Shown here in pieces: positions 2,643 to 46,113 of a DNA stretch of 46,722 nt (positions within the stretch are counted from its first letter, which is position 1; the number at the start of each line of letters is the position of its first letter). Source of the DNA: an uncultured archaeon (lineage in GTDB: Archaea > Nanohalarchaeota > Nanosalinia > Nanosalinales > Nanosalinaceae); NCBI GenBank assembly GCA_964421955.1, contig CAYQYU010000008.1, positions 1 to 46,722 on the forward strand, written 5' to 3'. The translations under genes were made by a program, and so were the position numbers. The notes under the pieces were generated by a model, which was not told the DNA's origin, did not search any database, and was given only the letters and a program-made list of their open reading frames with translations.

Positions 2643-3350
2643 TCAGTATTCAAACTCCTCTTTCTCCGTCTCCCACTCCGGATCAACCTTTCCCAGATCA
2701 CGAGTAACATGGGAAACCATCTTCTCCAGCTTCTTTTCCTTCTCCATCGTGCTTGAAGAAGTGAGAAATTCCTGGGCCAGCTTGTACATGTAGCCGTCGA
2801 ACTCCTGGAGCTTCTTTATTCGATAGTTATCCTTTACCGGTACTTCTCCCTTCAGCAGGTAATGCTTATGTATTAGATATTCAAACATCTGGTACATCAT
2901 GTATCGCTTCTGGCCCACATCTTCAGTATCCAGATCCTGCTGGTAGTCCCAGATGTTGTAAAGAATCTTCTCTCTTTCCTGATCAGAAAGATTCATCTTT
3001 TCATCTAATTTCTGCTCAGAGTACTCTTCCAGCTCTTCAAAGATGCCTTCGGGATCGTGCCTCACATCTGCGTTCCTCATCCAGTGATGCATGTACCAAG
3101 ACTCGCCTTCACGGTCAAAGTAACTCTTCGCCCACTCCATCGAATTGAAGAACTTTTCAAAAACTATGCCTTCTATTTCCTCTGTAACCCTTTTCCGCCA
3201 GTCACCGTCGATAATTACGTATATATCAATATCGTTGTGATCTTGCGAAGGATCGCGGGCATAGCTCCCAACTACTGCAACTGCACTTACATCTTTGCGG
3301 GACTTAAGCCTCTCAACTTCAGAATCGACAAGTTCTTCCAGTTCAGTCAT
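2643..3350 (-). CDS. Pol-beta superfamily nucleotidyltransferase domain protein with helical C-terminus
   Basis: VVGSYAR...NDIDIY (GS...DxD); its start overlaps the gatB stop. Confidence 0.8.
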   Translation of the reverse strand: MTELEELVDSEVERLKSRKDVSAVAVVGSYARDPSQDHNDIDIYVIIDGDWRKRVTEEIEGIVFEKFFNSMEWAKSYFDREGESWYMHHWMRNADVRHDPEGIFEELEEYSEQKLDEKMNLSDQEREKILYNIWDYQQDLDTEDVGQKRYMMYQMFEYLIHKHYLLKGEVPVKDNYRIKKLQEFDGYMYKLAQEFLTSSSTMEKEKKLEKMVSHVTRDLGKVDPEWETEKEEFEY

Positions 3351-14726: not shown

Positions 14727-14918
14727 ATGGGTAGAGTAAGACAGACCTACATCAAGCGCCTGGCAAAGGATCTCGTAGACGCGGATCCCGACAGGTTTAG
14801 CGAGGACTTTGACGAGAACAAGGAAGAACTCAAGGAGACAGAAGAGTTTGAGTCGAAGAAGTTGAGAAACAGGGTCGCGGGCTACATCGTCAGAGTGAAA
14901 AAGAATAGAGAACTGTAG
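14727..14918 (+). CDS. rps17e: 30S ribosomal protein S17e
   Basis: MGRVRQTYIKR...FSEDFDENK...SKKLRNRVAGYI. Confidence 0.97.
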   Translation: MGRVRQTYIKRLAKDLVDADPDRFSEDFDENKEELKETEEFESKKLRNRVAGYIVRVKKNREL

Positions 14919-16962
14919 CAGCGACCACAATTATCACGAGATGGAGGAATCCTATTCCCGGGACAACGTTTCTTGTCGAGATCGCCGTGTCTTTTCTCAC
15001 GTACACTGGTACACTTTTTGTAGTCGATAGCCCGAGTTCGGTGTTCGTCGTGGTTATGTTGAGTTCCTCATCTCCCGTCGTATCCGGGTTGATACGCGCC
15101 TGGAACCTCCTGGAAGACTGTGCATCGAGACTGTAGGTTATCCAGAACCTGTCGTTTTCCAGGAAAGTGGCATTTATTCCCTGGAGAGAGGTGTTCAGAT
15201 CTTTCGGGGTTCCAATGCTGTTCCTGACCTCAAAGACAAACTGGCTGGAATCACCTAGAGTGGCTATTATGCTGGAATACCGGTTTTCTACATTCACTGT
15301 AGGCCTGAAATCGGGCGATGTCAGCTTCTTGAAGTCAAAATCGGACGAAGTGAAGTTCTCCGTGCCGTCAGAGACATTCACGTACCAGGTGTAATCGTTG
15401 CTGACCACCGGTTTCGACCATAAAACCTCGGCCATACCTCCACCGAAAGAGGTGTCCTTGCCGATCAGCATGTCATCGCTATCGTTGTAGAAATATACAT
15501 TAAGAGCTGTAGTCTCCTTGTCGGTCGCCCATATCCTGAGAGGTACAGGATCATCACCTGAAAAGCCGCCGTCCTGTGGATCGCTGTCGGTTATAGTGGG
15601 AAGAGCGTTTACAAAGAAGCTAGCGTTATCGGTGCTCTTCGATGTCTCCCAGGAATCGGCGACTTCGACATGCCACCACTTGTGATCACCGCCGCCGAGA
15701 TCGGCGCTGCTCCATGTGCCCTCAACGGTACCTCCACCTGTCACCGTGGCGCTATCAATTGAGGTTCCGGTCTTGTTGTCGTAGAAAGTTACTGTAAGAG
15801 TGTCGCCGGAGTTGGGATCAGAGACATCCGCCCGCAGTACAGTATCGTTGCCCTTCAAAGTTGTACCGTCAGGCCTTATAAGACTGTCTACCTGGGGCGG
15901 CTGGTTCTTGATAACCGTCCACGTACTACTTGAGGATGAAGTTGCACCCTTAGAATCCTCGGCTACCGCATACCAGTCATTATCTCCATGGCTTATGCTC
16001 CAAGAAACACCGCTGGAACACTTGTTCCCATCTGAGGCGGAACAGGAGCCAATAAGGCTTCCCGAGCTGTCATAGAAGCGGATTGTACCTGAGTCCCCAT
16101 CAGGATCGTTGAACTCCGCGTTCAGAGTCACCGGAGAGGAAGTTACTGTGGTGCCGTCGGACGGCTCGGGATTAGTAGGCGCTGAAGGAGCGCTGTTACA
16201 TGTGCTGGCGGTGTCAGAGTAGAATGTTCCACTTTCGTGTCCGCTTAAATCATAGCTTCCTGAATTAGATATACTGCAAGCAATAATCTTGAATCTTCCT
16301 CCACCGCCTTCTCCTCCATCACCTCCTGCACCTCCGAATCCGCCGCCTCCACCGGTGGCTTCGACATAACCGGCGAAAGCTACGCTATCCCCTGTGAGGA
16401 GGACGCCGCCACCGCTTCCTCCTCCACCTCCTGTATCTCCTATACCACTTCCTCCGCTTATTCCATTTCCTCCGTTGACGTATATGTCTCCGGTAACATC
16501 GATATTAGATGCATTTACTTTCAGGGCTGCGCCTCCTCTACCCGGATCACCGTCGTTATTGTTCACACATGAGTCGCCACCGTCCTTCCCCGGCTGACCC
16601 TGAAGAATCTGGTTGGATGTCTTCGAGCCCCGGGCTGGCAGCCCCGGGGGATGAGCCGGGCCTCCAGCTCCTCCGTAGCCTCCACCGTCCCCATCTCCCA
16701 TTCCAGGGCTACTCGTGCATCTGTCGCTACTCTCTGCATTTCCCTGAACCTGGGATGAGAGCAAGAAATAGTTAGCCTTGATCTCTACTTTTCCCTCTAT
16801 ATACAGTGTTCCCCCATTCTTGATTTCAACATCGTCGTAGGTGTAAGAGCCATCTGTAAGCGTCTGGGATCCTCCATTTACAATGAGGTCTGCAGCTGTT
16901 GAAAGACCTGATATAAGTAGTATCGATATCAGTAGCAGGCAGAGCTTATTGTAGGTATCCAT
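14890..16962 (-). CDS. Secreted cell-surface glycoprotein with Gly-rich domain, Ig-like repeats and C-terminal VPG + TM anchor
   Basis: Signal peptide; GGGGGSGG-type stretches; three P.DG...W.V...D repeats; N-x-S/T sequons; C-terminal VPGIGFLHLVIIVVAATVLY. Confidence 0.85.
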   Translation of the reverse strand: MDTYNKLCLLLISILLISGLSTAADLIVNGGSQTLTDGSYTYDDVEIKNGGTLYIEGKVEIKANYFLLSSQVQGNAESSDRCTSSPGMGDGDGGGYGGAGGPAHPPGLPARGSKTSNQILQGQPGKDGGDSCVNNNDGDPGRGGAALKVNASNIDVTGDIYVNGGNGISGGSGIGDTGGGGGSGGGVLLTGDSVAFAGYVEATGGGGGFGGAGGDGGEGGGGRFKIIACSISNSGSYDLSGHESGTFYSDTASTCNSAPSAPTNPEPSDGTTVTSSPVTLNAEFNDPDGDSGTIRFYDSSGSLIGSCSASDGNKCSSGVSWSISHGDNDWYAVAEDSKGATSSSSSTWTVIKNQPPQVDSLIRPDGTTLKGNDTVLRADVSDPNSGDTLTVTFYDNKTGTSIDSATVTGGGTVEGTWSSADLGGGDHKWWHVEVADSWETSKSTDNASFFVNALPTITDSDPQDGGFSGDDPVPLRIWATDKETTALNVYFYNDSDDMLIGKDTSFGGGMAEVLWSKPVVSNDYTWYVNVSDGTENFTSSDFDFKKLTSPDFRPTVNVENRYSSIIATLGDSSQFVFEVRNSIGTPKDLNTSLQGINATFLENDRFWITYSLDAQSSRRFQARINPDTTGDEELNITTTNTELGLSTTKSVPVYVRKDTAISTRNVVPGIGFLHLVIIVVAATVLYSFSL

Positions 16963-17014: not shown

Positions 17015-17974
17015 TCAGAAAGCCCGTCTATCTCTCCTCTTAAGACCGGGCGAGAAACGCTTCTCAAGGCGAGAAAGATATTTCTCCGGGATCTTCGCCC
17101 GCTTGTCCGCCTCCAGGACAGGCGCAGGTACAGTATAACGGACGGATGCCTTCATCGAAAGCAGTAGACCGGAAATCCTGTCGGCCTCTCCAGGGTCGCC
17201 GTAAAAATCTATCCTCAGTGGTAAATCCCTCTCGGACAGCTTGACATAGAAGGTGTTGATCCTGTTGACATGCCGGTCCTCCAGCTCCTGTAGAACCGGG
17301 TGTTCTGCTGGCGAGTCCGAGTACCGCCTCACAAAACTCCTCTCCCTCTCATCAAGAATCGCGTCCATGAGAACTGTGTCCCTGATATCACCTATCTCGA
17401 CACCGAGCTTCTCCTCGAGCATTCTCGACAGCTTCAGGCCGTAGGAGTCCTCGACCACGCCCACGAATTTTCCGGAGCCAGCCTTCTCGAACACTTCCGA
17501 GTACTGGTCTATAACCTCGCTGTCTTCAAGATAGCTCGGGACCACTGAGCCGTCCAGAAGCACGATATCCGACAGGTCAAGAGAACGGTCGACCGTGTCT
17601 ATCTCCCTCTCTATCCGCCTGGCCTCGGCGTTTCTTTCCAGGCTTCGGGAGTCCTCGGCCTCGAACACCCGGAAATCCGGCTCCGGGTTTCTGGAGGGAA
17701 TATAGTCGACTTCAAGTGAGCCGCCATAATCAAAAATTGCTGCAACGGCCCTGACCGCTACCACGTCACCGGAGGCGTAGCGCCGCTTCAGAAGCCCTCC
17801 ATCGACACCCGCGACAGTTCCCGGTGCAACCTCTTCCACTTCCTTCGACAGAAATCCTTCCTTAACTGTTGCGTCCTCTTCAATACTGTCGATATCCCGG
17901 AACTTTTCCTCAAGTTCTTCTAGTCTGGAATCCTGTTTAGAAAGTTTTTCGGCAGCTTCACGGATGCTGGCCAT
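17015..17974 (-). CDS. nurA: NurA-family DNA double-strand break repair nuclease
   Basis: AGVDGG, VLLDGS, C-terminal YTVPAPVLEADKRAKI; alternative start 17980. Confidence 0.82.
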   Translation of the reverse strand: MASIREAAEKLSKQDSRLEELEEKFRDIDSIEEDATVKEGFLSKEVEEVAPGTVAGVDGGLLKRRYASGDVVAVRAVAAIFDYGGSLEVDYIPSRNPEPDFRVFEAEDSRSLERNAEARRIEREIDTVDRSLDLSDIVLLDGSVVPSYLEDSEVIDQYSEVFEKAGSGKFVGVVEDSYGLKLSRMLEEKLGVEIGDIRDTVLMDAILDERERSFVRRYSDSPAEHPVLQELEDRHVNRINTFYVKLSERDLPLRIDFYGDPGEADRISGLLLSMKASVRYTVPAPVLEADKRAKIPEKYLSRLEKRFSPGLKRRDRRAF

Positions 17975-18012
17975 AGACATGTATAAGAGCTTTAAACGTT
18001 AAAACGGTGAGT

Positions 18013-28767: not shown

Positions 28768-29517
28768 ATGAAACTCGGAATCTCCCTGGGGCCGAAACCG
28801 GAAGAAGTTTCCCGCGTGCCGGAAGAGTTTGACTTTGTGGAAATCTCTATAGGAGAGATGGAGATAGCCCCGGAAGAAATAGATACCGGGCAGCTGAAAC
28901 AGGACCTTGAGGACAGAGATCTCGACCTTGTAGTCCACCTGCCGTTCAGGCAGCCGATAGTCACCAGCGTCGAGGAGTTCAACCAGGCCCAGAAGGACTA
29001 CCTGGAACGGCTACTGGAGTTCTCCTCAGAGCTCGGTGCGGAAAAGGCGGTGGTCCACGCCAACCTGAGGTACGGCGAGGACAAAGAAGAAATGAGGGAG
29101 AGGCTGGAAGAACAGCTGGGAGAAATCAGCGAGCTCGGGCAGGAGCACGGAGTCGAGGTCTGCTTCGAGAACATCCACTTTGAGACCTCGAAAGCCGCCG
29201 ACATCTGGGAACTGGCAGATATACTTGAAGATCTGGGCCTTTCAATGTGCTTCGACAACGGCCACGCGTTCGCCGAGATCGACCAAGAAGAGATAGCCGA
29301 GTTCCTGGAGGAATACACCCATATAATCTCCCACCTCCACATACAGGACACCAGGGAGGGCAAAGACCTCCACATGCCGATCGGCAGCGCAGAGTTCGAC
29401 TTCTCGATAATTGGAGACACGCTTCCCGGATTCGCGGGAACCGCGTGTCTCGAAATTTTCACCTCAGACAGCGACTACCTCAAACTATCGCGGGAAAAGT
29501 TCCGGGAGCACTTCTAG
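28768..29517 (+). CDS. Sugar-phosphate isomerase/epimerase (AP endonuclease 2 TIM-barrel) family
   Basis: VHLP, VVH, FEN, FDNGH, HLHIQD, DLHMPIG, LEI. Confidence 0.9.
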   Translation: MKLGISLGPKPEEVSRVPEEFDFVEISIGEMEIAPEEIDTGQLKQDLEDRDLDLVVHLPFRQPIVTSVEEFNQAQKDYLERLLEFSSELGAEKAVVHANLRYGEDKEEMRERLEEQLGEISELGQEHGVEVCFENIHFETSKAADIWELADILEDLGLSMCFDNGHAFAEIDQEEIAEFLEEYTHIISHLHIQDTREGKDLHMPIGSAEFDFSIIGDTLPGFAGTACLEIFTSDSDYLKLSREKFREHF

Positions 29518-38489: not shown

Positions 38490-39155
38490 TTATCTGCGGC
38501 CGCCGTGCCTGTTCCGGGTCCCGCCACCCAGGCTACTGTTTATTCTCTTCAGTAGCTCTATGATCTGCTCATTCTGTGACTTCAGCTCATCGATGTCCTC
38601 CCTGCTGGCGGTAGAGCTTCCTCCACGAGGATTCATGCCCGCGTTCTCCATTTCTCTCTCTGTCTGCGGACTTAGCTGTGGCTCCGAGCTTCCTTCCCGC
38701 GGTCTCCCTGTCTGGGGATTTGGAGATTCCTGTGGAGCTTTTCCCCGGGACTGGTTCCCCTGGCTGTTCTGCTGTCTCCTCGAATTCTGCTGGCCTGGCT
38801 GACCTCCACGTCCCTGATTTGGCTGGTTCTGTCTCGGAGGTTGTGGTTCATTTGCACCAGAGTCTGTCGCGGGAGCTGGATCATCGGAGAGACCCTGTCC
38901 CACGGGATCGATACCTCCCTGGTTCTGGCCCTGCTGGTTCTGGCCGGGACTTCCAAAACCTGTATCTCTGCTGTTATCAATATCATTCATTCCTCCTGGG
39001 CTATTTCCAGGGCCCTGACCCTGTGATCCTCCTTCAAAGGAGCTTTCGAAATCGTTGCCGCCGAAATCTGAGCCTCTCGATCGAGAACTGCTGTTAGAGG
39101 AACCAGAAGACGAATTAGATGAAAATGAATCCTTGATACTGTCCAGGAAACCCAT
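38490..39155 (-). CDS. Intrinsically disordered S/G/Q/N/P-rich protein with N-terminal amphipathic motif and C-terminal coiled coil
   Basis: MGFLDSIKDSF; low-complexity core; EDIDELKSQNEQIIELLKRINSSL. Confidence 0.8.
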   Translation of the reverse strand: MGFLDSIKDSFSSNSSSGSSNSSSRSRGSDFGGNDFESSFEGGSQGQGPGNSPGGMNDIDNSRDTGFGSPGQNQQGQNQGGIDPVGQGLSDDPAPATDSGANEPQPPRQNQPNQGRGGQPGQQNSRRQQNSQGNQSRGKAPQESPNPQTGRPREGSSEPQLSPQTEREMENAGMNPRGGSSTASREDIDELKSQNEQIIELLKRINSSLGGGTRNRHGGRR

Positions 39156-39226
39156 AAGAGGATTTGTGGCGGAGCTGTTGATTAAAGTTTCGATTCACCG
39201 ATTTTAAGTAGGAGTGGAACAAATCT

Positions 39227-40852
39227 ATGGGCGTGAGCCACGGAGACGAACCCGGGAAAACCTGCCATTTTGGACACGTCGTTATGCCCGTGAAGGGGGA
39301 GATAGACCATGAACTCAAGAAGAGGGTTCAAAGTGGGGAGATAGGAAATCTCGACCAGCTAAGGAACGCTGGTAACAGTATTGGCGATCTCTGCGGCAAT
39401 CCCTACAAGACGGTCAAGGTGATTTCCGGGAGCCAGGGCGCTCCAAGAGCCGCGGCCTTCCAGGCGGTTGACAAGCTTGACGACGACCTGGATTATACGG
39501 CGAAAAAACTGAGCGAGAGCATCTTTGTGTCACCCCAGAGCCAGCTCCACAGCGAGTACATGCAGAGGAAGAACCAGGCGGAGCAGAACGTCAGGGACAC
39601 GATGAGGAATATCTCGAACCTGATCCAGCAGAAGCACATGCTTGAACACGATATCCGAAAACTGAGGACGCGGGCGGAAAACATGCGTTCCGGAGACGAG
39701 AATATTCTGAAAGGTGACTTCATAGAGCTCGTGGACGGCGCGGGAGCTGCCGGAGGACAGGGCGGTGACGAGGCCTCGCTAAAGTTCTACCGTGACAACA
39801 ACATATATCCCTCAATTGTCGCGGACTTCCAGGAGATGAGTTCGCTCGAAGATCTTGAGGAGGGCGAGAAGCTAGGAGAGCTGCCGAACAACGAGAAGGC
39901 CATTCTGCGGAAAAAATGGGCGATGTACGAGAAGTGGAAGGACCTCTACGGAAGCGAGATCCAGAGAAAGTTGAAGGAGCTAAAGCAGCAGCTGAAGAGT
40001 ATTGAACGCTCGATTGATGAGACTGAGGAATGGCTTGAACCTTACGTCAGGGACGTGAAGATGATAAACGAGAAGAGTCGTGATGAGCTCAAGGCCGAGT
40101 TCAGCCATTATTTCGATTTCCGGGGCACCTCGACCCAGTTCAGGACGATGGAGTTCGTGGCCTATCGACCGATGGTAAATGGGGGGAGAATGCTTGAAGT
40201 TGTGGAGGACGGGTCGAACGCCACCCACTACCGTATGATATACATACACGTCACCCATATCAACCTCGCGGGATTTGAACAGCCGCAGACACCGGCCCAG
40301 GGGCCTTCAGTTGCGATAATCAAGTGGCATCCCGTGGTGATATGTCGCCACGTGTTCGAGAAATTCTTCCAGAAAAGGGTCGAAGAACACGCCAACCAGT
40401 TCGAGCAGGTCCTGAAAGACTACCACGGCGAGCTACAGACAGAGAGAGGTAGCAAGATACAGGAAGCCAGGAGCGATAAGGGCTTCAAGGTGAGAGAGGT
40501 CAGGGAGAAGATCAAGGAGGAGTTGGACAGGGAAATCCCTGTAGAGTTTTCATCCACGTTGAGAAGGGTTGAAGACGGTATAGACACCCCAAATACCATC
40601 GAGAAGCGGTACGGGGAAGGAGTGCTGGAGGCGCTTGAAACGGTGCTTGAGATAGAACTCGGAGAGGAGGATGAAGATGCGGACGAGGAGATGTACCGGG
40701 GAATACAGAAAGAGCTCAGGGAATTTACAGGCCTTGTAGACGAGTTCAAGATCCCTGCCAGCGCCGATCCCGTGGGAGACTTTCAAAACCATTTCAAGTT
40801 CGACTTTTACTACGACTTCAAGGTCGACCTCGGCCTGTTCGTCATGAATTGA
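39227..40852 (+). CDS. Uncharacterised coiled-coil protein with possible XRE-type HTH
   Basis: Two heptad regions; GSKIQEARSDKGFKVREV...SSTLRRVEDGIDTP. Confidence 0.85.
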   Translation: MGVSHGDEPGKTCHFGHVVMPVKGEIDHELKKRVQSGEIGNLDQLRNAGNSIGDLCGNPYKTVKVISGSQGAPRAAAFQAVDKLDDDLDYTAKKLSESIFVSPQSQLHSEYMQRKNQAEQNVRDTMRNISNLIQQKHMLEHDIRKLRTRAENMRSGDENILKGDFIELVDGAGAAGGQGGDEASLKFYRDNNIYPSIVADFQEMSSLEDLEEGEKLGELPNNEKAILRKKWAMYEKWKDLYGSEIQRKLKELKQQLKSIERSIDETEEWLEPYVRDVKMINEKSRDELKAEFSHYFDFRGTSTQFRTMEFVAYRPMVNGGRMLEVVEDGSNATHYRMIYIHVTHINLAGFEQPQTPAQGPSVAIIKWHPVVICRHVFEKFFQKRVEEHANQFEQVLKDYHGELQTERGSKIQEARSDKGFKVREVREKIKEELDREIPVEFSSTLRRVEDGIDTPNTIEKRYGEGVLEALETVLEIELGEEDEDADEEMYRGIQKELREFTGLVDEFKIPASADPVGDFQNHFKFDFYYDFKVDLGLFVMN

Positions 40853-40858
40853 GGGGTC

Positions 40859-43351
40859 ATGGCTTTCTTACTTGATACCCTGAGGAAGAATCTCGGTTCC
40901 GGGAATGAGGAAGGTTTTGGCGACCTGAACTACATCATCGGTAACACTTCCGGACTCGACATCGGACAGGTTCCTTCGCCACTCGACCAGCGTATCGGCA
41001 GGATGGCACAGATCGGAGGTGGAGTGATGGAGGTACAGATCACCAACCCCGCAACCTTCCAGATCGATAGGCCTGAGTTAATGAACGTTATCAACCAGAT
41101 CGGTTTCGACACTATCACTTTACACGGCGACCCCAACATCGGCTTTACAGGAGCATACGCGACTCGGGGCCAGGGAATAACAGGGTACAACATCGTCCAC
41201 CGGTACTTCAAGCGCTACCTCGAGCAGATGGCCTCGTTCCGGTGGGAGGCCAGCAAACAGAAAGAGGACTTCTTCGACGTCGGTTACGTCAACATGCACG
41301 CCTCCAACGAGATGATACCGGCCCGGGAAGAAAGACTAGCATCCGACGTCTCCGTCGATCCATTCGGCTTCCAGATCACGAACATCAACGGCGGGAAGGA
41401 AATCAATATCTACGAGAACGAAGAGTTCCTGGAGAACCTGTTCGACTACTTCTTCCTGGAGATGGTTGAACAGCCCTGGAGGCAGTACGAACAGATATTT
41501 TCGGATGAATCAGAAGATTTCCGGGAGAAATGGAACGAGGTGAAAGCTGAGGAGGTGGATGACTACTTCTTCAGCAGGAAAATGGATATATCTTTCAAGG
41601 ACAAGATTTCCCTCTTCCAGACCGCCTCAAGCATCGATCAGGGCGCGGAGGAAGACTTTCTCCAGAGCCTAGATCAATACGAGCTTGAACAGCCCATAGA
41701 AATCGCCGCAAGAAGAACGACTCAGGAAGATGAGCTGGGAGAGGAAGTGGTGAGAAAGGTGTCGACTCTTGAGGAAATATCCAATGTATTCAGGGCTGAG
41801 GCAAGGAGAATTTTCAGCAACACAGCGCGTCTTTCCCGGGATCTTTTCGACCTGAAGAATGGTAATGTGCAACCAGAACTTGAGAGAGGTATCAGAGCAA
41901 CCGGCATCAATGTACCCGAGAATTCCCTGGATAACGCCGTGGAGGAGCTGATAGAGGACCTCTGGGGGACAGGTACACAGGCCGCTCTTTCCGCCCAGGG
42001 AAAGCTCCAGTCCGTATCAAGAAACCTTGACATACAGAACACCAGGATATACGAGGAGGCCCAGGACCGCCCGGATGTAATAGAAGAAGCCAAAAAAGCC
42101 TTTTCCAACCCTGAGAACAACCAGATAATAAAGAACCTAACCCAGGGCCGTGTCCGTGACGACTTCAACAAGGAGTCATCGCTGTTCTTCCACATCCTCC
42201 CTGCCTGGATGCAGGCTGCCGACTACTCCTCTGATGAAGGCAATCACCCAGGTTGGGAAGTACCCAAGTTCATCTGGGAGAACACGCTTAGACAGAGCGT
42301 TGAGGAGAGCAACGTGGTTGATGGCGACGACCCTTACTTCGACAGCTGGGAGCAGTTCGAAGCCTTCCTGGATGAGAGACGTGAGAACGAGCTGGACGTT
42401 ATCGCTGCGGTCGGAATATGCTACATTTGGGGTCACTGGACCCAGAAAAAGGACCGGTTTAACAACGAGCCATTCGAACTTACGGTCACCGGCTTTGAAG
42501 GATACGAGAAGCCCGAGCTGAAGGAGGGAGATGAGGGAAGTTACACCTGGATCGAGTGGATGAACAAGTTCGGGCTGAGGCTGAACATCGAGGCGATGTT
42601 TGGAAGCCCCGGTGAGTTAAGAAGAGTGTGGCGGCCGAAGGATATCGCGATAGCATGCCACGCAATCAACCGTCAGGCCCGCAAAGACCTGGGAGAAGAC
42701 TACGATAATAACCTTGTCAAGTTCACGATCGACATGGAGCACACCGCCTCCTACGGCGTAGATCCGTGGAATGAGATGCAGAAGCTGATCGACAACGAGA
42801 AGAAGCTTGCGGAAGACTATCCTGATCTCGGCATCAATCCCGAGAAGCCGCTGGCGAAGATAGTGAAGACCTATCACCTTACGAAGCCGGGGTGGGAGCA
42901 ACAGCAGGGCCACAGGCACGGACCCTTTACGCGGGGAGACGAGACGCTCTACTACTGGCTCTACCACATGGTGAAGAACGGTTTTGCCCGCAATCCTGAC
43001 GACGAGGCCCGTATAATCTTCGAGGTCGGCGGGGAATATAGGGAGGAAATGTACGTCACTCGGGTGGCTATGGACATGATAGAGCTCGGAATAGAACCCG
43101 AGGAGTTGAACGTCAACAAGATCCCTGTCGACGGCAACTTCGAGACAGTGGAGCAGGAACTCATGGCCCGTTTCTTCGGGATGGACAAGGGAAGCTTCAA
43201 CCGGGAGTGGGCGAAGATCGAGGAGCACGCGTTCGACCCGCTCGACGGTTTACTCCAGGCAAGAAGCTTCGATGATACGTTCTCCAGCCAGGGCGCTATC
43301 GAGCAGGGCCAGGCCCGGCCACAGCAGTGGAAGGAAGAGGAGTACCAGTAA
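40859..43351 (+). CDS. Large AP-endonuclease-2/xylose-isomerase-like TIM-barrel protein with ~425-aa insertion
   Basis: Ordered motifs TLHG, NMHA, NIEA, TIDMEH, TYHL, HRHGP, IFEV. Confidence 0.8.
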   Translation: MAFLLDTLRKNLGSGNEEGFGDLNYIIGNTSGLDIGQVPSPLDQRIGRMAQIGGGVMEVQITNPATFQIDRPELMNVINQIGFDTITLHGDPNIGFTGAYATRGQGITGYNIVHRYFKRYLEQMASFRWEASKQKEDFFDVGYVNMHASNEMIPAREERLASDVSVDPFGFQITNINGGKEINIYENEEFLENLFDYFFLEMVEQPWRQYEQIFSDESEDFREKWNEVKAEEVDDYFFSRKMDISFKDKISLFQTASSIDQGAEEDFLQSLDQYELEQPIEIAARRTTQEDELGEEVVRKVSTLEEISNVFRAEARRIFSNTARLSRDLFDLKNGNVQPELERGIRATGINVPENSLDNAVEELIEDLWGTGTQAALSAQGKLQSVSRNLDIQNTRIYEEAQDRPDVIEEAKKAFSNPENNQIIKNLTQGRVRDDFNKESSLFFHILPAWMQAADYSSDEGNHPGWEVPKFIWENTLRQSVEESNVVDGDDPYFDSWEQFEAFLDERRENELDVIAAVGICYIWGHWTQKKDRFNNEPFELTVTGFEGYEKPELKEGDEGSYTWIEWMNKFGLRLNIEAMFGSPGELRRVWRPKDIAIACHAINRQARKDLGEDYDNNLVKFTIDMEHTASYGVDPWNEMQKLIDNEKKLAEDYPDLGINPEKPLAKIVKTYHLTKPGWEQQQGHRHGPFTRGDETLYYWLYHMVKNGFARNPDDEARIIFEVGGEYREEMYVTRVAMDMIELGIEPEELNVNKIPVDGNFETVEQELMARFFGMDKGSFNREWAKIEEHAFDPLDGLLQARSFDDTFSSQGAIEQGQARPQQWKEEEYQ

Positions 43352-43352
43352 A

Positions 43353-43955
43353 TTATCGATCCAGGTTCTCCACAGCATCCCGCTGGCGGAGAAAAACATC
43401 GGCGGTCTGGGCGAAGAAGTTACGTTTACAGGGCTGCTCTCTCTTTCCTATATAGGTGTCAAATGCGAAGGTGCGATAAGTGTTATCATCTCCATACATT
43501 CCAAATGCTTTTCTGGCTGTCAAATCACATTTCCAGCCGTGGTAGTCCGAGGTAAATCCGTGCACAGTATCACCTCCATCTGCGACATCAAGGGCCGAAT
43601 CCACATCATCCGCGGTGGTGTCAAGTTCCCTGTAGGGTTCCTGGACATCGACACCTAATTCTTCAAGATTTTCTATCTCTGAACTATCAACTGCTTCCTG
43701 CTCTTCTTCCGGAACAACGAGTACATCAGGAACATCATTTCCAAAATCCCAGTTATGGGTGATATCATACTGCGCGCCCATGAACCTGATCCTGCTCTCG
43801 TAGTCGTTTGGCGCACCGTACACGAATCCGACATCGCAGCCTCCATGCTCAAGAGTATCTTCGTAACTCTCTCTATCACTAATAAAAGGTATACGAACCA
43901 TCGCATCTCCCATCTGATCGAGACTATGAACAGGGCCCAGTTTATTTTCTACCAT
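43353..43955 (-). CDS. Hypothetical protein, DUF218/YdcF-like
   Basis: FTSDYH preceded by DTTADD, like the NT.EN...VTS.YH pattern of DUF218; composition appears more AT-rich. Confidence 0.55.
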   Translation of the reverse strand: MVENKLGPVHSLDQMGDAMVRIPFISDRESYEDTLEHGGCDVGFVYGAPNDYESRIRFMGAQYDITHNWDFGNDVPDVLVVPEEEQEAVDSSEIENLEELGVDVQEPYRELDTTADDVDSALDVADGGDTVHGFTSDYHGWKCDLTARKAFGMYGDDNTYRTFAFDTYIGKREQPCKRNFFAQTADVFLRQRDAVENLDR

Positions 43956-44017
43956 AAAGTAACAACTACACTGTAAGGTTTATAAATTTATGAACCAAGG
44001 ATTCATTGTGGTTCTAC

Positions 44018-45274
44018 ATGAGCGGCGCCGATAAAGTCAAGGAGATGAGAGAAAAATCCAAGGAGCGCAGAATAGAGGCCGCGGAAGAATTTGCGGACAA
44101 ACTGGTCGATAAACTCGGCGACAAGGTCAAATGCGTCGCCGTATGGGGCTCCGTTCCACAGGCAGAGCACGGATACGACTCCGATATCGACACGCTCGTT
44201 ATTCTGGACGATACTAAACTACAGCAGGACGTTCCCAAGGATGCTCGCGACAAGATAAGAAGGAAGGTTACGGACCTCGCGAAAGAAACAGATGACAGGA
44301 TCACGATCCAGTACTTCCCGTTCCTGACTGAATTCTGGGACTCGCTGAGAAAGGGCGAGCCGCTCGCGATCGAGGCCGTGAGAAACGGCGAACCAGTCTA
44401 CGACGTGGGAATCTTCATGCCTGCAAAGCGTCTGCTCGAGCGGGGCAAGATTTCTGCGACTCGAGAAAGCGTCAAGAAAAGACTCAAACTAGCCGCCGCG
44501 GGCTACAAGAAGGCAGAGAAGAACTTCAAATCCTCGATCCCTCACAAGCTCGAGCAGGTTATGGCTAACGCAGGACAGGCACCTATAATGCTTGTAGGAA
44601 AACAGCCGCCCGCAAAGGAAAAGGTGCCTGAGACGCTTGAGGAAATGTTTGTAGAAAAAGAGATGCTAGAGCCGGAATACATCGAGATCGCGCAGGAGCT
44701 CTACGATTTCGGCGACCAGGGTGAGAAGAACCCTGAGGAGACCACAGGACAGCAGATCGAGGAACACCTCGAGAAGGCGGACGATTTTGTCCGCAGAATG
44801 CACAAGCTTGTCTCCCAGCTCGGTGCAAGAAAGAAGGTCAAAGACATAATTGACGACTACAAGAGGTTCCTCAAGGCGAACGTCGCCGCTTTAAAATCGA
44901 AGGGTGTTGAACCTCCGGAGGACAAGGAGGACCTACCCGAGGTAGTTGAAGAGAATCTGGATGTTGGCGAATCCCACATCGAAATGTTCGAACGCTGGGA
45001 GGATGTGATCGAGAAGGTGAAGAGCAAGGAGTTACAGGATGTCAACGAGAAGGAGCTTTACGAGCTCAAGAACGATACCAGGGACTTCGTCTCGAGAGTT
45101 GGTAAGGACCTCCAGGAGATGAAAGAGCAGGAGGCCGAAAGTATGGCACCTGATATGGACACCTCATCGATCGCAAAGGCCGCCGACACGGATGAAATGA
45201 TCCCCAACCTCGAAGAGAAGGCCGAAAAGGAAGTAGAGGCCGAAGAAGAGACCGAGGAAGAGGACAAAGATTAG
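44018..45274 (+). CDS. Nucleotidyltransferase fused to a HEPN-like helical domain, with acidic tail
   Basis: VWGS...SDIDTLVILDD, FWDSLRKGEP, helical C-terminal half; start refined to ATG 44018. Confidence 0.88.
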   Translation: MSGADKVKEMREKSKERRIEAAEEFADKLVDKLGDKVKCVAVWGSVPQAEHGYDSDIDTLVILDDTKLQQDVPKDARDKIRRKVTDLAKETDDRITIQYFPFLTEFWDSLRKGEPLAIEAVRNGEPVYDVGIFMPAKRLLERGKISATRESVKKRLKLAAAGYKKAEKNFKSSIPHKLEQVMANAGQAPIMLVGKQPPAKEKVPETLEEMFVEKEMLEPEYIEIAQELYDFGDQGEKNPEETTGQQIEEHLEKADDFVRRMHKLVSQLGARKKVKDIIDDYKRFLKANVAALKSKGVEPPEDKEDLPEVVEENLDVGESHIEMFERWEDVIEKVKSKELQDVNEKELYELKNDTRDFVSRVGKDLQEMKEQEAESMAPDMDTSSIAKAADTDEMIPNLEEKAEKEVEAEEETEEEDKD

Positions 45275-45276
45275 CT

Positions 45277-46113
45277 TTAAGATTTACTGCTATAGGAGCT
45301 CCTTTCCAGCCATTCACTAACTTTTCGGAATGACTCGTAGTGATCAAAAACCATATCTCTGACCTGCTCTCCTCTCTCCGTCATTTCGTAGTCTCCCTTC
45401 CCATTCTCTATCAGACCAGCCGATTTCATCGAATAGTCGCCGGATGAAATCCAGTTGCCAATATTGGAGGGAGTTACATCAAGAATATCGCCCAAGCTCT
45501 CATATGAGACACAATCACTGTTCATTGTATCCATAAGTAGGAAGGTTCTCAACGGTTTACTATGGTTATCTCTACTCGCTTCTTTATCCTGTAGCGTCAA
45601 GACTTTGAAGTATTCTCCGACTTCTTCGTAAGATACTTCGCCGGCGAAAGGATTCTCTTCAGGTTCGCCTATCGATTCCACAACCCCTTCATCTCTGAGA
45701 TGATTCTCTACCGATTCACTTACTTCCTCGCCACCTCCTACCTCCTTAGCAGCTCTTTCAGGAAGATTTCCGTATATCTCTTTCTCAAGCAGAGAAAAGT
45801 AGTCATATCTGTCCTCTGCAAAGCTATCTATACCTTCAAAAAGCGCCTCGGTATAAGGTGTATCACGGTTGAAAGGATCCACAAGTCGTACATCTTTCCA
45901 CTCATCCGCCCAAGCCTCAATAGTGGGTGCCCGTGTACCTTCACTCATCTCTAGTTCTTCAATTATCGTTTCTGGATCAGCTCCACCTAGCCAAAGCTGA
46001 AGAGCTTTAAGTTTGCTGTATCCTCCATTTGCGTTTCTAACGCTTCTGTAGATATCGGAAACGGTATTGATATGCCCATCCTCCAAAATATTTTCAGCAT
46101 CCAAGCCAACCAT
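45277..46113 (-). CDS. Hypothetical protein with probable winged-HTH domain(s)
   Basis: SYESLGDILDVTPSNIGNW...AGLIE...YEMTERG. Confidence 0.65.
   Translation of the reverse strand: MVGLDAENILEDGHINTVSDIYRSVRNANGGYSKLKALQLWLGGADPETIIEELEMSEGTRAPTIEAWADEWKDVRLVDPFNRDTPYTEALFEGIDSFAEDRYDYFSLLEKEIYGNLPERAAKEVGGGEEVSESVENHLRDEGVVESIGEPEENPFAGEVSYEEVGEYFKVLTLQDKEASRDNHSKPLRTFLLMDTMNSDCVSYESLGDILDVTPSNIGNWISSGDYSMKSAGLIENGKGDYEMTERGEQVRDMVFDHYESFRKVSEWLERSSYSSKS

Follow-up and report, generated by a model that had tools for sequence, protein, structure and literature searches.

Do three large genes that follow one another in an archaeal contig form one functional system, and if so, what might that system act on? 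The question is raised by a 46,722-nucleotide (nt) stretch of DNA from an uncultured archaeon of the Nanosalinaceae (Nanohalarchaeota; contig CAYQYU010000008.1, assembly GCA_964421955.1), referred to below as the window. A first-pass annotation had proposed, at positions 38490-45274, a lineage-conserved module of a disordered scaffold, a coiled-coil protein with a helix-turn-helix (HTH), a giant TIM barrel and a protein joining a nucleotidyltransferase (NTase) to a HEPN domain. The region contains the following features, with lengths in amino acids (aa).

38490-39155, minus strand: disordered protein, 221 aa, divergent and upstream of A
39227-40852, plus strand: gene A, 541 aa, coiled coil with an XRE-like HTH
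40859-43351, plus strand: gene B, 830 aa, predicted endonuclease-IV-like barrel
43353-43955, minus strand: antisense "slot" gene, 200 aa, acidic, AT-richer, between B and D
43956-44017: intergenic region between the divergent slot gene and D, containing TTTATAAA
44018-45274, plus strand: gene D, 418 aa from ATG 44018 (422 aa from TTG 44006)

For D, ATG 44018 is the preferred start; the protein database holds the 418-aa form from this contig. The annotation had described A, B and D as large, co-oriented genes of core-like composition, and all three were found where it placed them, with GC contents at third codon positions (GC3) between 0.67 and 0.70 (A 0.696, B 0.697, D 0.666).

A scan for the B family in GTDB r232, using one genome per species, yielded 46 loci, 40 of them nanohaloarchaeal-type and six more distant (three labelled Aenigmatarchaeota and three "uncultured archaeon", here collectively Aenigmatarchaeota-type). 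The 902 open reading frames (ORFs) of these loci and the window were clustered, and synteny counts were limited to loci with enough flanking DNA. Among the nanohaloarchaeal loci informative on this point, gene A immediately precedes B in 32 of 32, at distances of -4 to +128 nt, and D follows B in the same orientation in 32 of 33; the single exception (L039) still gave a tblastn match to D. The gene-neighbourhood check called for by the annotation thus came out in favour of the trio, and so did its remark that similar proteins recur in other DPANN genomes: among the Aenigmatarchaeota-type loci, A adjoined B in four of six, overlapping the start of B in three of those four, and D followed B in three of four. 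Four complete or megabase-scale genomes carried one locus each.

The surroundings of the trio differ between clades. In 14 loci and the window, the upstream genes encode a dCTP deaminase, TatD, NYN, a small membrane protein and the disordered protein (in the window, TatD was matched at a Pfam E-value of 2.9e-69 and NYN at 1.8e-29). Instead of these, 17 loci carry genes for a metallophosphoesterase, DUF58, a MoxR ATPase, DUF7502 and a membrane-anchored coiled-coil protein, and the neighbours in the Aenigmatarchaeota-type loci are different again. Because the order A-B-D is kept while its surroundings vary, these genes represent a conserved unit whose gene order spans two phyla with differing flanks. 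As neighbours of the unit, TatD, NYN and the disordered protein are confined to one subclade. Of the lineage-conserved module originally envisaged, the clustering of A, B and D therefore stood, whereas the disordered protein drops out of it, and so do the two nucleases, which do lie upstream in the window as described.

A few loci depart from this arrangement. One Aenigmatarchaeota-type locus (L042) has A and B without D nearby, and another (L041:10939-12934) lacks A and has, following B, two tandem D paralogs of 273 and 401 aa. In Candidatus Nanosalinarum J07AB56, a second, partial copy of B (L034:9959-11134) comprises the C-terminal half of the protein (391 aa), ends in a masked run and has neither A nor D nearby. 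A contig labelled as part of a Colwellia polaris metagenome-assembled genome (L008, JBLGBK010000006.1) contains a nanohaloarchaeal A-B-D and an archaeal A-type ATPase operon; since its label is bacterial, it is probably mis-binned.

Within the window, B starts 6 nt past the end of A; the two genes are translationally coupled or nearly so. The module is ringed by housekeeping genes encoding aminoacyl-tRNA synthetases, FtsZ, aRF1 and the A-ATPase. Searches of plasmids with B and of phages with A (both tblastn) gave no match. Its occurrence in virtually all nanohaloarchaeal genomes examined, and in a related phylum as well, indicates that the trio is probably a housekeeping module. DPANN genomes are tiny, and three genes retained together despite this small size, by almost all nanohaloarchaea and by another phylum, probably do something that the cells cannot lose.

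Mean pairwise identity across species was 0.74 for D, 0.50 for A and 0.43 for B, with 0.73 for AtpD and 0.81-0.83 for AtpA and AtpB as references. On this measure the constraint on D is comparable to that on an ATP-synthase subunit, and the top 120 listed homologs of D were 73-100% identical. The D protein consists of a Pol-beta-superfamily NTase domain, followed by a helical, HEPN-like region and a helical and acidic C-terminal extension. All four residues of the motif G44-S45...D56-x-D58 (418-aa numbering) were invariant in 30 family sequences, and all 30 matched both NTP_transf_2 (PF01909; 22.6 bits for the window protein versus a cut-off of 21) and Polbeta (PF18765), 26 of them also an MTPAP-like palm. 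D is thus predicted to be an active O-nucleotidyltransferase. Of the former designation as NTase-HEPN, the first half is solid and the second weak, since HEPN and HepT Pfam models matched one of the 30 members each. The family of 30 shows no conserved His and no R-x4-6-H motif after the NTase domain; without such a His, assignment of D as a HEPN RNase is not supported. The label "nucleotidyltransferase/UPF0332" (JGI) was attached to three of the 120 listed D homologs. The D orthologs of non-halophiles have polybasic N- and C-terminal tails and isoelectric points (pI) of 9.25-9.9; polybasic tails are common in nucleic-acid binders.

By profile, the best solved relative of D was kanamycin nucleotidyltransferase (E 1.5e-6). 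Like D, this enzyme, ANT(4'), has an NTase domain followed by a helical domain, but the similarity spans only about 50 N-terminal residues, D has about 200 additional C-terminal residues, and nothing suggests an antibiotic substrate. A role of D as a replacement CCA-adding enzyme was considered and dropped, as D gave no match to archaeal CCA models; in a 2026 preprint, class 1 or class 2 CCA enzymes are reported across 177 DPANN genomes (10.64898/2026.05.29.728689). Elsewhere in the window (2643-3350, minus strand), a second, small minimal-nucleotidyltransferase (MNT)-like protein of 235 aa shows weak similarity to the D-family profile (E 2.3e-5) and to HalB/MntA models.

The family to which D may belong has been noticed before. 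In the sections of Makarova, Wolf and Koonin (PMC6393860) considered here, the DPANN-specific cluster cls.004259 (representative NEQ050), "MNT fused to HEPN" in a typically housekeeping context, had members in 36 of 67 DPANN genomes and was singled out in 2019 as a priority unknown. Its description fits D, a DPANN NTase fused to HEPN-like helices, unusually conserved and in housekeeping surroundings; those sections mention no linked A- or B-type genes. The same sections state that MNT-HEPN architectures are usually toxin-antitoxin modules (Makarova et al. 2019, PMC6393860). Such a toxin-antitoxin or antiviral defence function for A-B-D, a possibility also voiced in the first-pass annotation, would agree with matches of D to generic MNT models of candidate defence systems in PADLOC-DB 2.0 (PDC-S09, E 5.1e-8; PDC-M05A) and, weakly, to an oligonucleotide cyclase. 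We regard it as very improbable. PADLOC recognised no known system; B, the slot gene and the disordered protein were without a match, and A gave weak, coiled-coil-only matches to SMC-like models (LmuB, E 9.5e-7; JetC) that we take as noise. With the minimal nucleotidyltransferase MntA of Type VII MntA-HepT, D shares the fold and the G-S...D-x-D motif; it differs in being one fused 418-aa protein without R-x4-6-H, encoded by a core gene that is neither patchy nor mobile. Near-universal, single-copy occurrence, the high identity among listed D homologs, the housekeeping flanks and the negative plasmid and phage searches likewise speak against defence, and this part of the original proposal is disfavoured.

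For B, an AlphaFold2 (AF2) model based on a 45-sequence alignment (pLDDT 85.3, pTM 0.82) comprised eight strand-helix units and a large insertion. The predicted (beta/alpha)8 barrel is split by this helical and beta insertion of about 395 residues between H147 and E578. A C-terminal tail (about 783-830) is conserved (HAFDPL-x-GLL and a final W-x-x-E-E-Y) and modelled with low confidence, a combination characteristic of docking segments, as B's tail may be. Candidate metal ligands are H89, H147, E578, D625, H628, H673, H685, H687 and E722, in the motifs TLH89, NMH147, NIE578, TID625-x-x-H628, YH673, H685-R-H687 and FE722. Their order is that of E. coli Nfo (endonuclease IV) residues H69, H109, E145, D179/H182, H216, D229/H231 and E261, which we take to be the nine metal ligands (H69, H109, E145, D179, H182, H216, D229, H231, E261) of that enzyme; a check of the Nfo sequence found the expected residue at all nine positions. 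The local motifs around these residues are also alike. When paired by motif order, eight of the nine positions have the same residue type in both proteins, and the ninth is His (H685) in place of Asp. With the exception of H685, the ligand columns of the B family are invariant or near-invariant.

Sugar epimerases of the xylose-isomerase-like fold need only an E-D-H-E set. In endonuclease IV, two further N-terminal His and one additional His presumably serve the other metals. Because its ligands exceed the epimerase subset, B is read as a putative trinuclear-metal phosphodiesterase with an endonuclease-IV-type site. With a full ligand set of this kind, B could in chemical terms hydrolyse the type of phosphodiester bond made by an NTase. 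The two enzymes also differ: Nfo has 285 aa, B 830 aa with its insertion between the second His and the Glu, its conserved tail and an obligatory coiled-coil neighbour gene, and the E-values of the sequence and fold comparisons between them are not significant.

Structural comparison of B raises the question of a small-molecule function. Foldseek searches of the PDB ranked YcjR and ketose 3-epimerases (probability 0.98-1.0) and endonuclease IV (0.93-0.97) best; all best matches were TIM barrels of the xylose-isomerase-like superfamily, with E-values of at least 0.076 and TM-scores normalised by query of about 0.1. A shorter, Aenigmatarchaeota-type B ortholog of 515 aa (L043) matched PF01261 with E 3.5e-6 and 27.3 bits, below the cut-off of 31.1, was placed in Atlas clusters that carry the name "xylose isomerase-like" (at TM 0.49-0.75) and had "sugar phosphate isomerase/epimerase" as an Atlas structural neighbour. 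B might accordingly be pictured as a sugar(-phosphate) isomerase/epimerase or CbiR-like phosphodiesterase in small-molecule salvage, with D adenylylating a small molecule; DPANN archaea depend on scavenging, and kanamycin nucleotidyltransferase as the best solved relative of D is in keeping with this picture. We nevertheless judge it improbable: B retains three His beyond E-D-H-E, two of them N-terminal, and a coiled-coil/HTH partner and the polybasic tails of D orthologs would be unusual for small-molecule enzymes. Besides, the window already encodes a conventional member of the superfamily at 28768-29517 (plus strand), a canonical small AP_endonuc_2 protein of 249 aa (PF01261, E 4.5e-30). 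Among NCBIfam models it is closest to CbiR, a phosphodiesterase of cobamide remodelling (E 2.8e-24, below cut-off). The motif order H, H, E, D-x-x-H, H, D-x-H, E is present in that protein as well.

The AF2 model of A (pLDDT 77.7, pTM 0.63) shows a small N-terminal alpha/beta domain, a long antiparallel coiled-coil hairpin (helices of about 106-155 and 221-279), a beta-sheet domain (about 304-373), a five-helix XRE-like HTH (about 406-474) and an aromatic, conserved C-terminus. Residues at the tip of the hairpin (H141, D142, R144, F165, V169, D170, P195, I197, D200 and F201) are invariant across both phyla. The protein database search returned 189 homologs, and a profile search of 1.84 billion representatives gave 223 matches at E<=1e-3, of which 125 were at E<=1e-30; the conserved core of the profile covers positions of about 55-340, i.e., head and hairpin. 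No Pfam or NCBIfam family was found for A, and none of 43 distant representatives scanned reached a curated Pfam cut-off. The HTH claimed earlier for A is a candidate assignment that leans on local Foldseek matches of the bundle to SinR/XRE proteins (probability 0.96-1.0, TM by target 0.56-0.73, E 0.27-0.6), on similar local XRE matches among viral structures (BFVD) and on weak HTH_31 matches in three of 38 A proteins (E>=0.069); MBF1/HTH names from source databases occur on four of 120 listed homologs. Whole-model Foldseek searches of the PDB and BFVD gave no global match for A, the ESM Atlas search no usable match, and comparison with the PDB by single sequence and profile nothing significant. 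By analogy, the A-B pair, a predicted metal phosphoesterase gene next to one that encodes a long antiparallel coiled coil whose apex is conserved, may be likened to Mre11-Rad50 or SbcCD. A differs from the Rad50/SbcC partners in having no ATPase domain, and the fold of B differs from that of Mre11.

What, then, would the trio act on? Our preferred reading, which we hold tentatively and at somewhat less than an even chance, is that A-B-D is an ancient, vertically inherited, single-copy housekeeping module that breaks and makes phosphodiester bonds at nucleic-acid ends. B, partnered with the coiled-coil/HTH protein A, would be a metal-dependent phosphodiesterase with an endonuclease-IV-type trinuclear site, and B and D would share the same phosphodiester-linked nucleotide chemistry, most likely at nucleic-acid 3' ends. 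B, together with A, would cut a phosphodiester or clean a blocked 3' end, and D would add untemplated nucleotides. Nucleic-acid ends are considered the likeliest substrate because of the HTH of A, the basic tails and RNA-polymerase-like palm matches of D and the ligand pattern of B. If correct, end repair or marking of this kind would add a new branch to the AP-endonuclease-2 superfamily and place an MNT-HEPN architecture outside toxin-antitoxin biology.

Several results weigh against this reading. For B, no Foldseek match reached E<=0.001 and the top ones were sugar epimerases; alignment of the family to E. coli Nfo by hhalign gave only E 0.12 and is therefore not usable as proof. NCBIfam, including its nfo models (TIGR00587, NF002196), gave no match for B or for the six Aenigmatarchaeota-type orthologs, in which H685 is not conserved. 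The window protein itself belongs to no Pfam family, and its comparison with the PDB by single sequence and profile gave nothing significant. PF01261 was matched by none of 45 nanohaloarchaeal B proteins at E<=0.1, so that the earlier designation as a TIM barrel leans on the model and on the sub-threshold Pfam match of the one ortholog. Non-halophile B orthologs are neutral to acidic (pI 5.6-7.6) in loci with a median ORF pI of about 9.3, which is unlike what is usually seen for a stand-alone DNA enzyme; in the window, where the median ORF pI is 4.69, the proteome is acidic. This acidity and the exclusively nanohaloarchaeal origin of the named homologs place the window in the Nanohaloarchaeota. 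The HTH of A is unrecognisable in the Aenigmatarchaeota-type proteins. The closest solved relatives of D act on a small molecule (kanamycin NTase) or on a protein (MntA). A partial Mantel test controlling for AtpA/AtpB revealed no co-evolution signal specific to A-B-D (r = 0.34 for A-B, 0.48 for A-D and 0.06 for B-D, with 0.40 for A-AtpD and 0.53 for D-AtpD as controls).

Two further counterpoints concern the tie between B and D. The rates of evolution of A and B and of D are very different, and D appears to have its own promoter in the window, where the antisense gene parts it from B. The element TTTATAAA at 43979-43986, about 32 nt before ATG 44018 and about 24 nt from the start of the slot gene, may represent an archaeal TATA box, judged by the usual sequence and spacing of archaeal promoters. 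A scan for promoters and terminators showed no enrichment with models of bacterial type that are ill-suited to archaea, and Rfam and tRNA scans of the window returned 0 matches each. The unequal rates and the putative promoter of D would suit a pair A-B and an independent essential gene D whose adjacency is a frozen accident of ancestry, as would the separation of B from D by the antisense gene in 17 of 35 sources and the loci with A-B but no D nearby (L042) or B-D but no A (L041). Set against such an accident is the B-then-D order, maintained in 32 of 33 nanohaloarchaeal and three of four Aenigmatarchaeota-type loci despite reshuffled surroundings, and we think it rather unlikely that the trio falls into two unrelated units.

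The target of the chemistry could also be a protein. In a scheme along the lines of the first-pass annotation, D would nucleotidylylate a hydroxyl group of a protein or other macromolecule, B would remove the mark, and A would target or scaffold the pair. Relatives of D by profile include, at weak E-values, the protein-AMPylating antitoxin MntA and the uridylyltransferase GlnD; phosphodiester hydrolysis is predicted from the ligand set of B; the A-B-D linkage spans two phyla; and the very strong conservation of D would fit a regulator under many constraints. Such a writer and eraser has, however, no known target, and to our knowledge no de-AMPylase has the fold of B. Moreover, conservation of the module does not extend to the disordered "scaffold" protein, and the HEPN part of D offers neither a conserved R-x4-6-H nor a His as a modified or active site. 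We rate this scheme, though chemically compatible with both enzymes, as unlikely. In a broader formulation, A-B-D would be an essential nucleotidyl-processing machine restricted to Nanohaloarchaeota and Aenigmatarchaeota, in which a new coiled-coil/HTH subunit holds a giant phosphodiesterase derived from endonuclease IV; with D, this would work as a 3'-end clean-and-extend or a write/erase pair on nucleic acid or another macromolecule, which we consider possible but rather doubtful. If it held, it would supply the first functional context for the DPANN priority unknown listed in 2019.

As to what has been described before, each enzyme fits a known superfamily, and the D-like family had already been flagged in print in 2019. 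The A-B-D cluster is not described in the portions of PMC6393860 and PMC12988326 covered here. In the sections of the DPANN literature found, the trio is undescribed, as are the A family, the giant split barrel and the slot gene that recurs between B and D. The D-like family, a priority unknown in the part of PMC6393860 considered, would now be tied to two partner genes, one of them with a recognisable endonuclease-IV-type metal site.

The antisense gene between B and D is indeed AT-richer than its surroundings, as previously noticed, with a GC content of 0.476 and a GC3 of 0.453 (45 window ORFs of >=100 aa: mean GC 0.517, standard deviation 0.026). The impression that it had been inserted did not hold, since related genes are found at this position in 17 of the 35 nanohaloarchaeal sources with both B and D; B and D abut in 14 of the remaining sources, and four have other or no ORFs there. 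An iterative hidden Markov model search seeded with the window protein and one close relative converged on 18 proteins; all are encoded on the opposite strand in the B-D interval, and the 902 ORFs contain no member outside it. Their identity to the window protein is only 13-44%, which indicates fast evolution, and they share the motifs "G-x-P...E-E-D" and "T-S-D-Y". Three of 19 sequences matched DUF218 (PF02698) at E 0.0014-0.035, all below cut-off, and the best PDB match of the family profile, YacP (E 0.74), was not significant. The slot gene is probably a dispensable, fast-evolving accessory. A better candidate for recent acquisition is the neighbouring ORF at 45277-46113 (minus strand; 278 aa, acidic), which has the lowest GC content of the region (0.441, GC3 0.405), no relative in the 46 loci and no Pfam, NCBIfam or PADLOC match.

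The divergent disordered protein was confirmed as an ORF and in its composition (16.7% G, 15.8% S, 11.3% Q, 9% N; 11% hydrophobic residues). It has a short N-terminal helix motif, a G/S/Q/N-rich centre with one motif and a C-terminal amphipathic helix, and conservation of N-terminal, central and C-terminal motifs in 13 sources identifies it as a real gene. By tblastn it was detected in 14 loci and the window and was absent from the 17 loci with MoxR/DUF58 context; no Pfam, NCBIfam or PADLOC match was obtained.

Just upstream of A, the Aenigmatarchaeota-type loci encode a small Pro-rich disordered protein with a C-terminal amphipathic helix, two tandem paralogs of about 170 aa and a small multi-transmembrane protein. 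The upstream ORFs recorded in these loci are:

L043:5839-6168 and L045:5141-5539, minus strand
L043:7238-7489, L045:6628-6984 and L044:82-414, plus strand

This set echoes the small membrane and disordered or coiled-coil proteins beside A in both nanohaloarchaeal contexts, a likeness of layout between sequences of low complexity. Farther away in the window, a NurA nuclease gene (17015-17980, minus strand) adjoins an ORF of 690 aa (14890-16962, minus strand) that has no Pfam or NCBIfam match and occupies the spot where a HerA-type partner might be expected.

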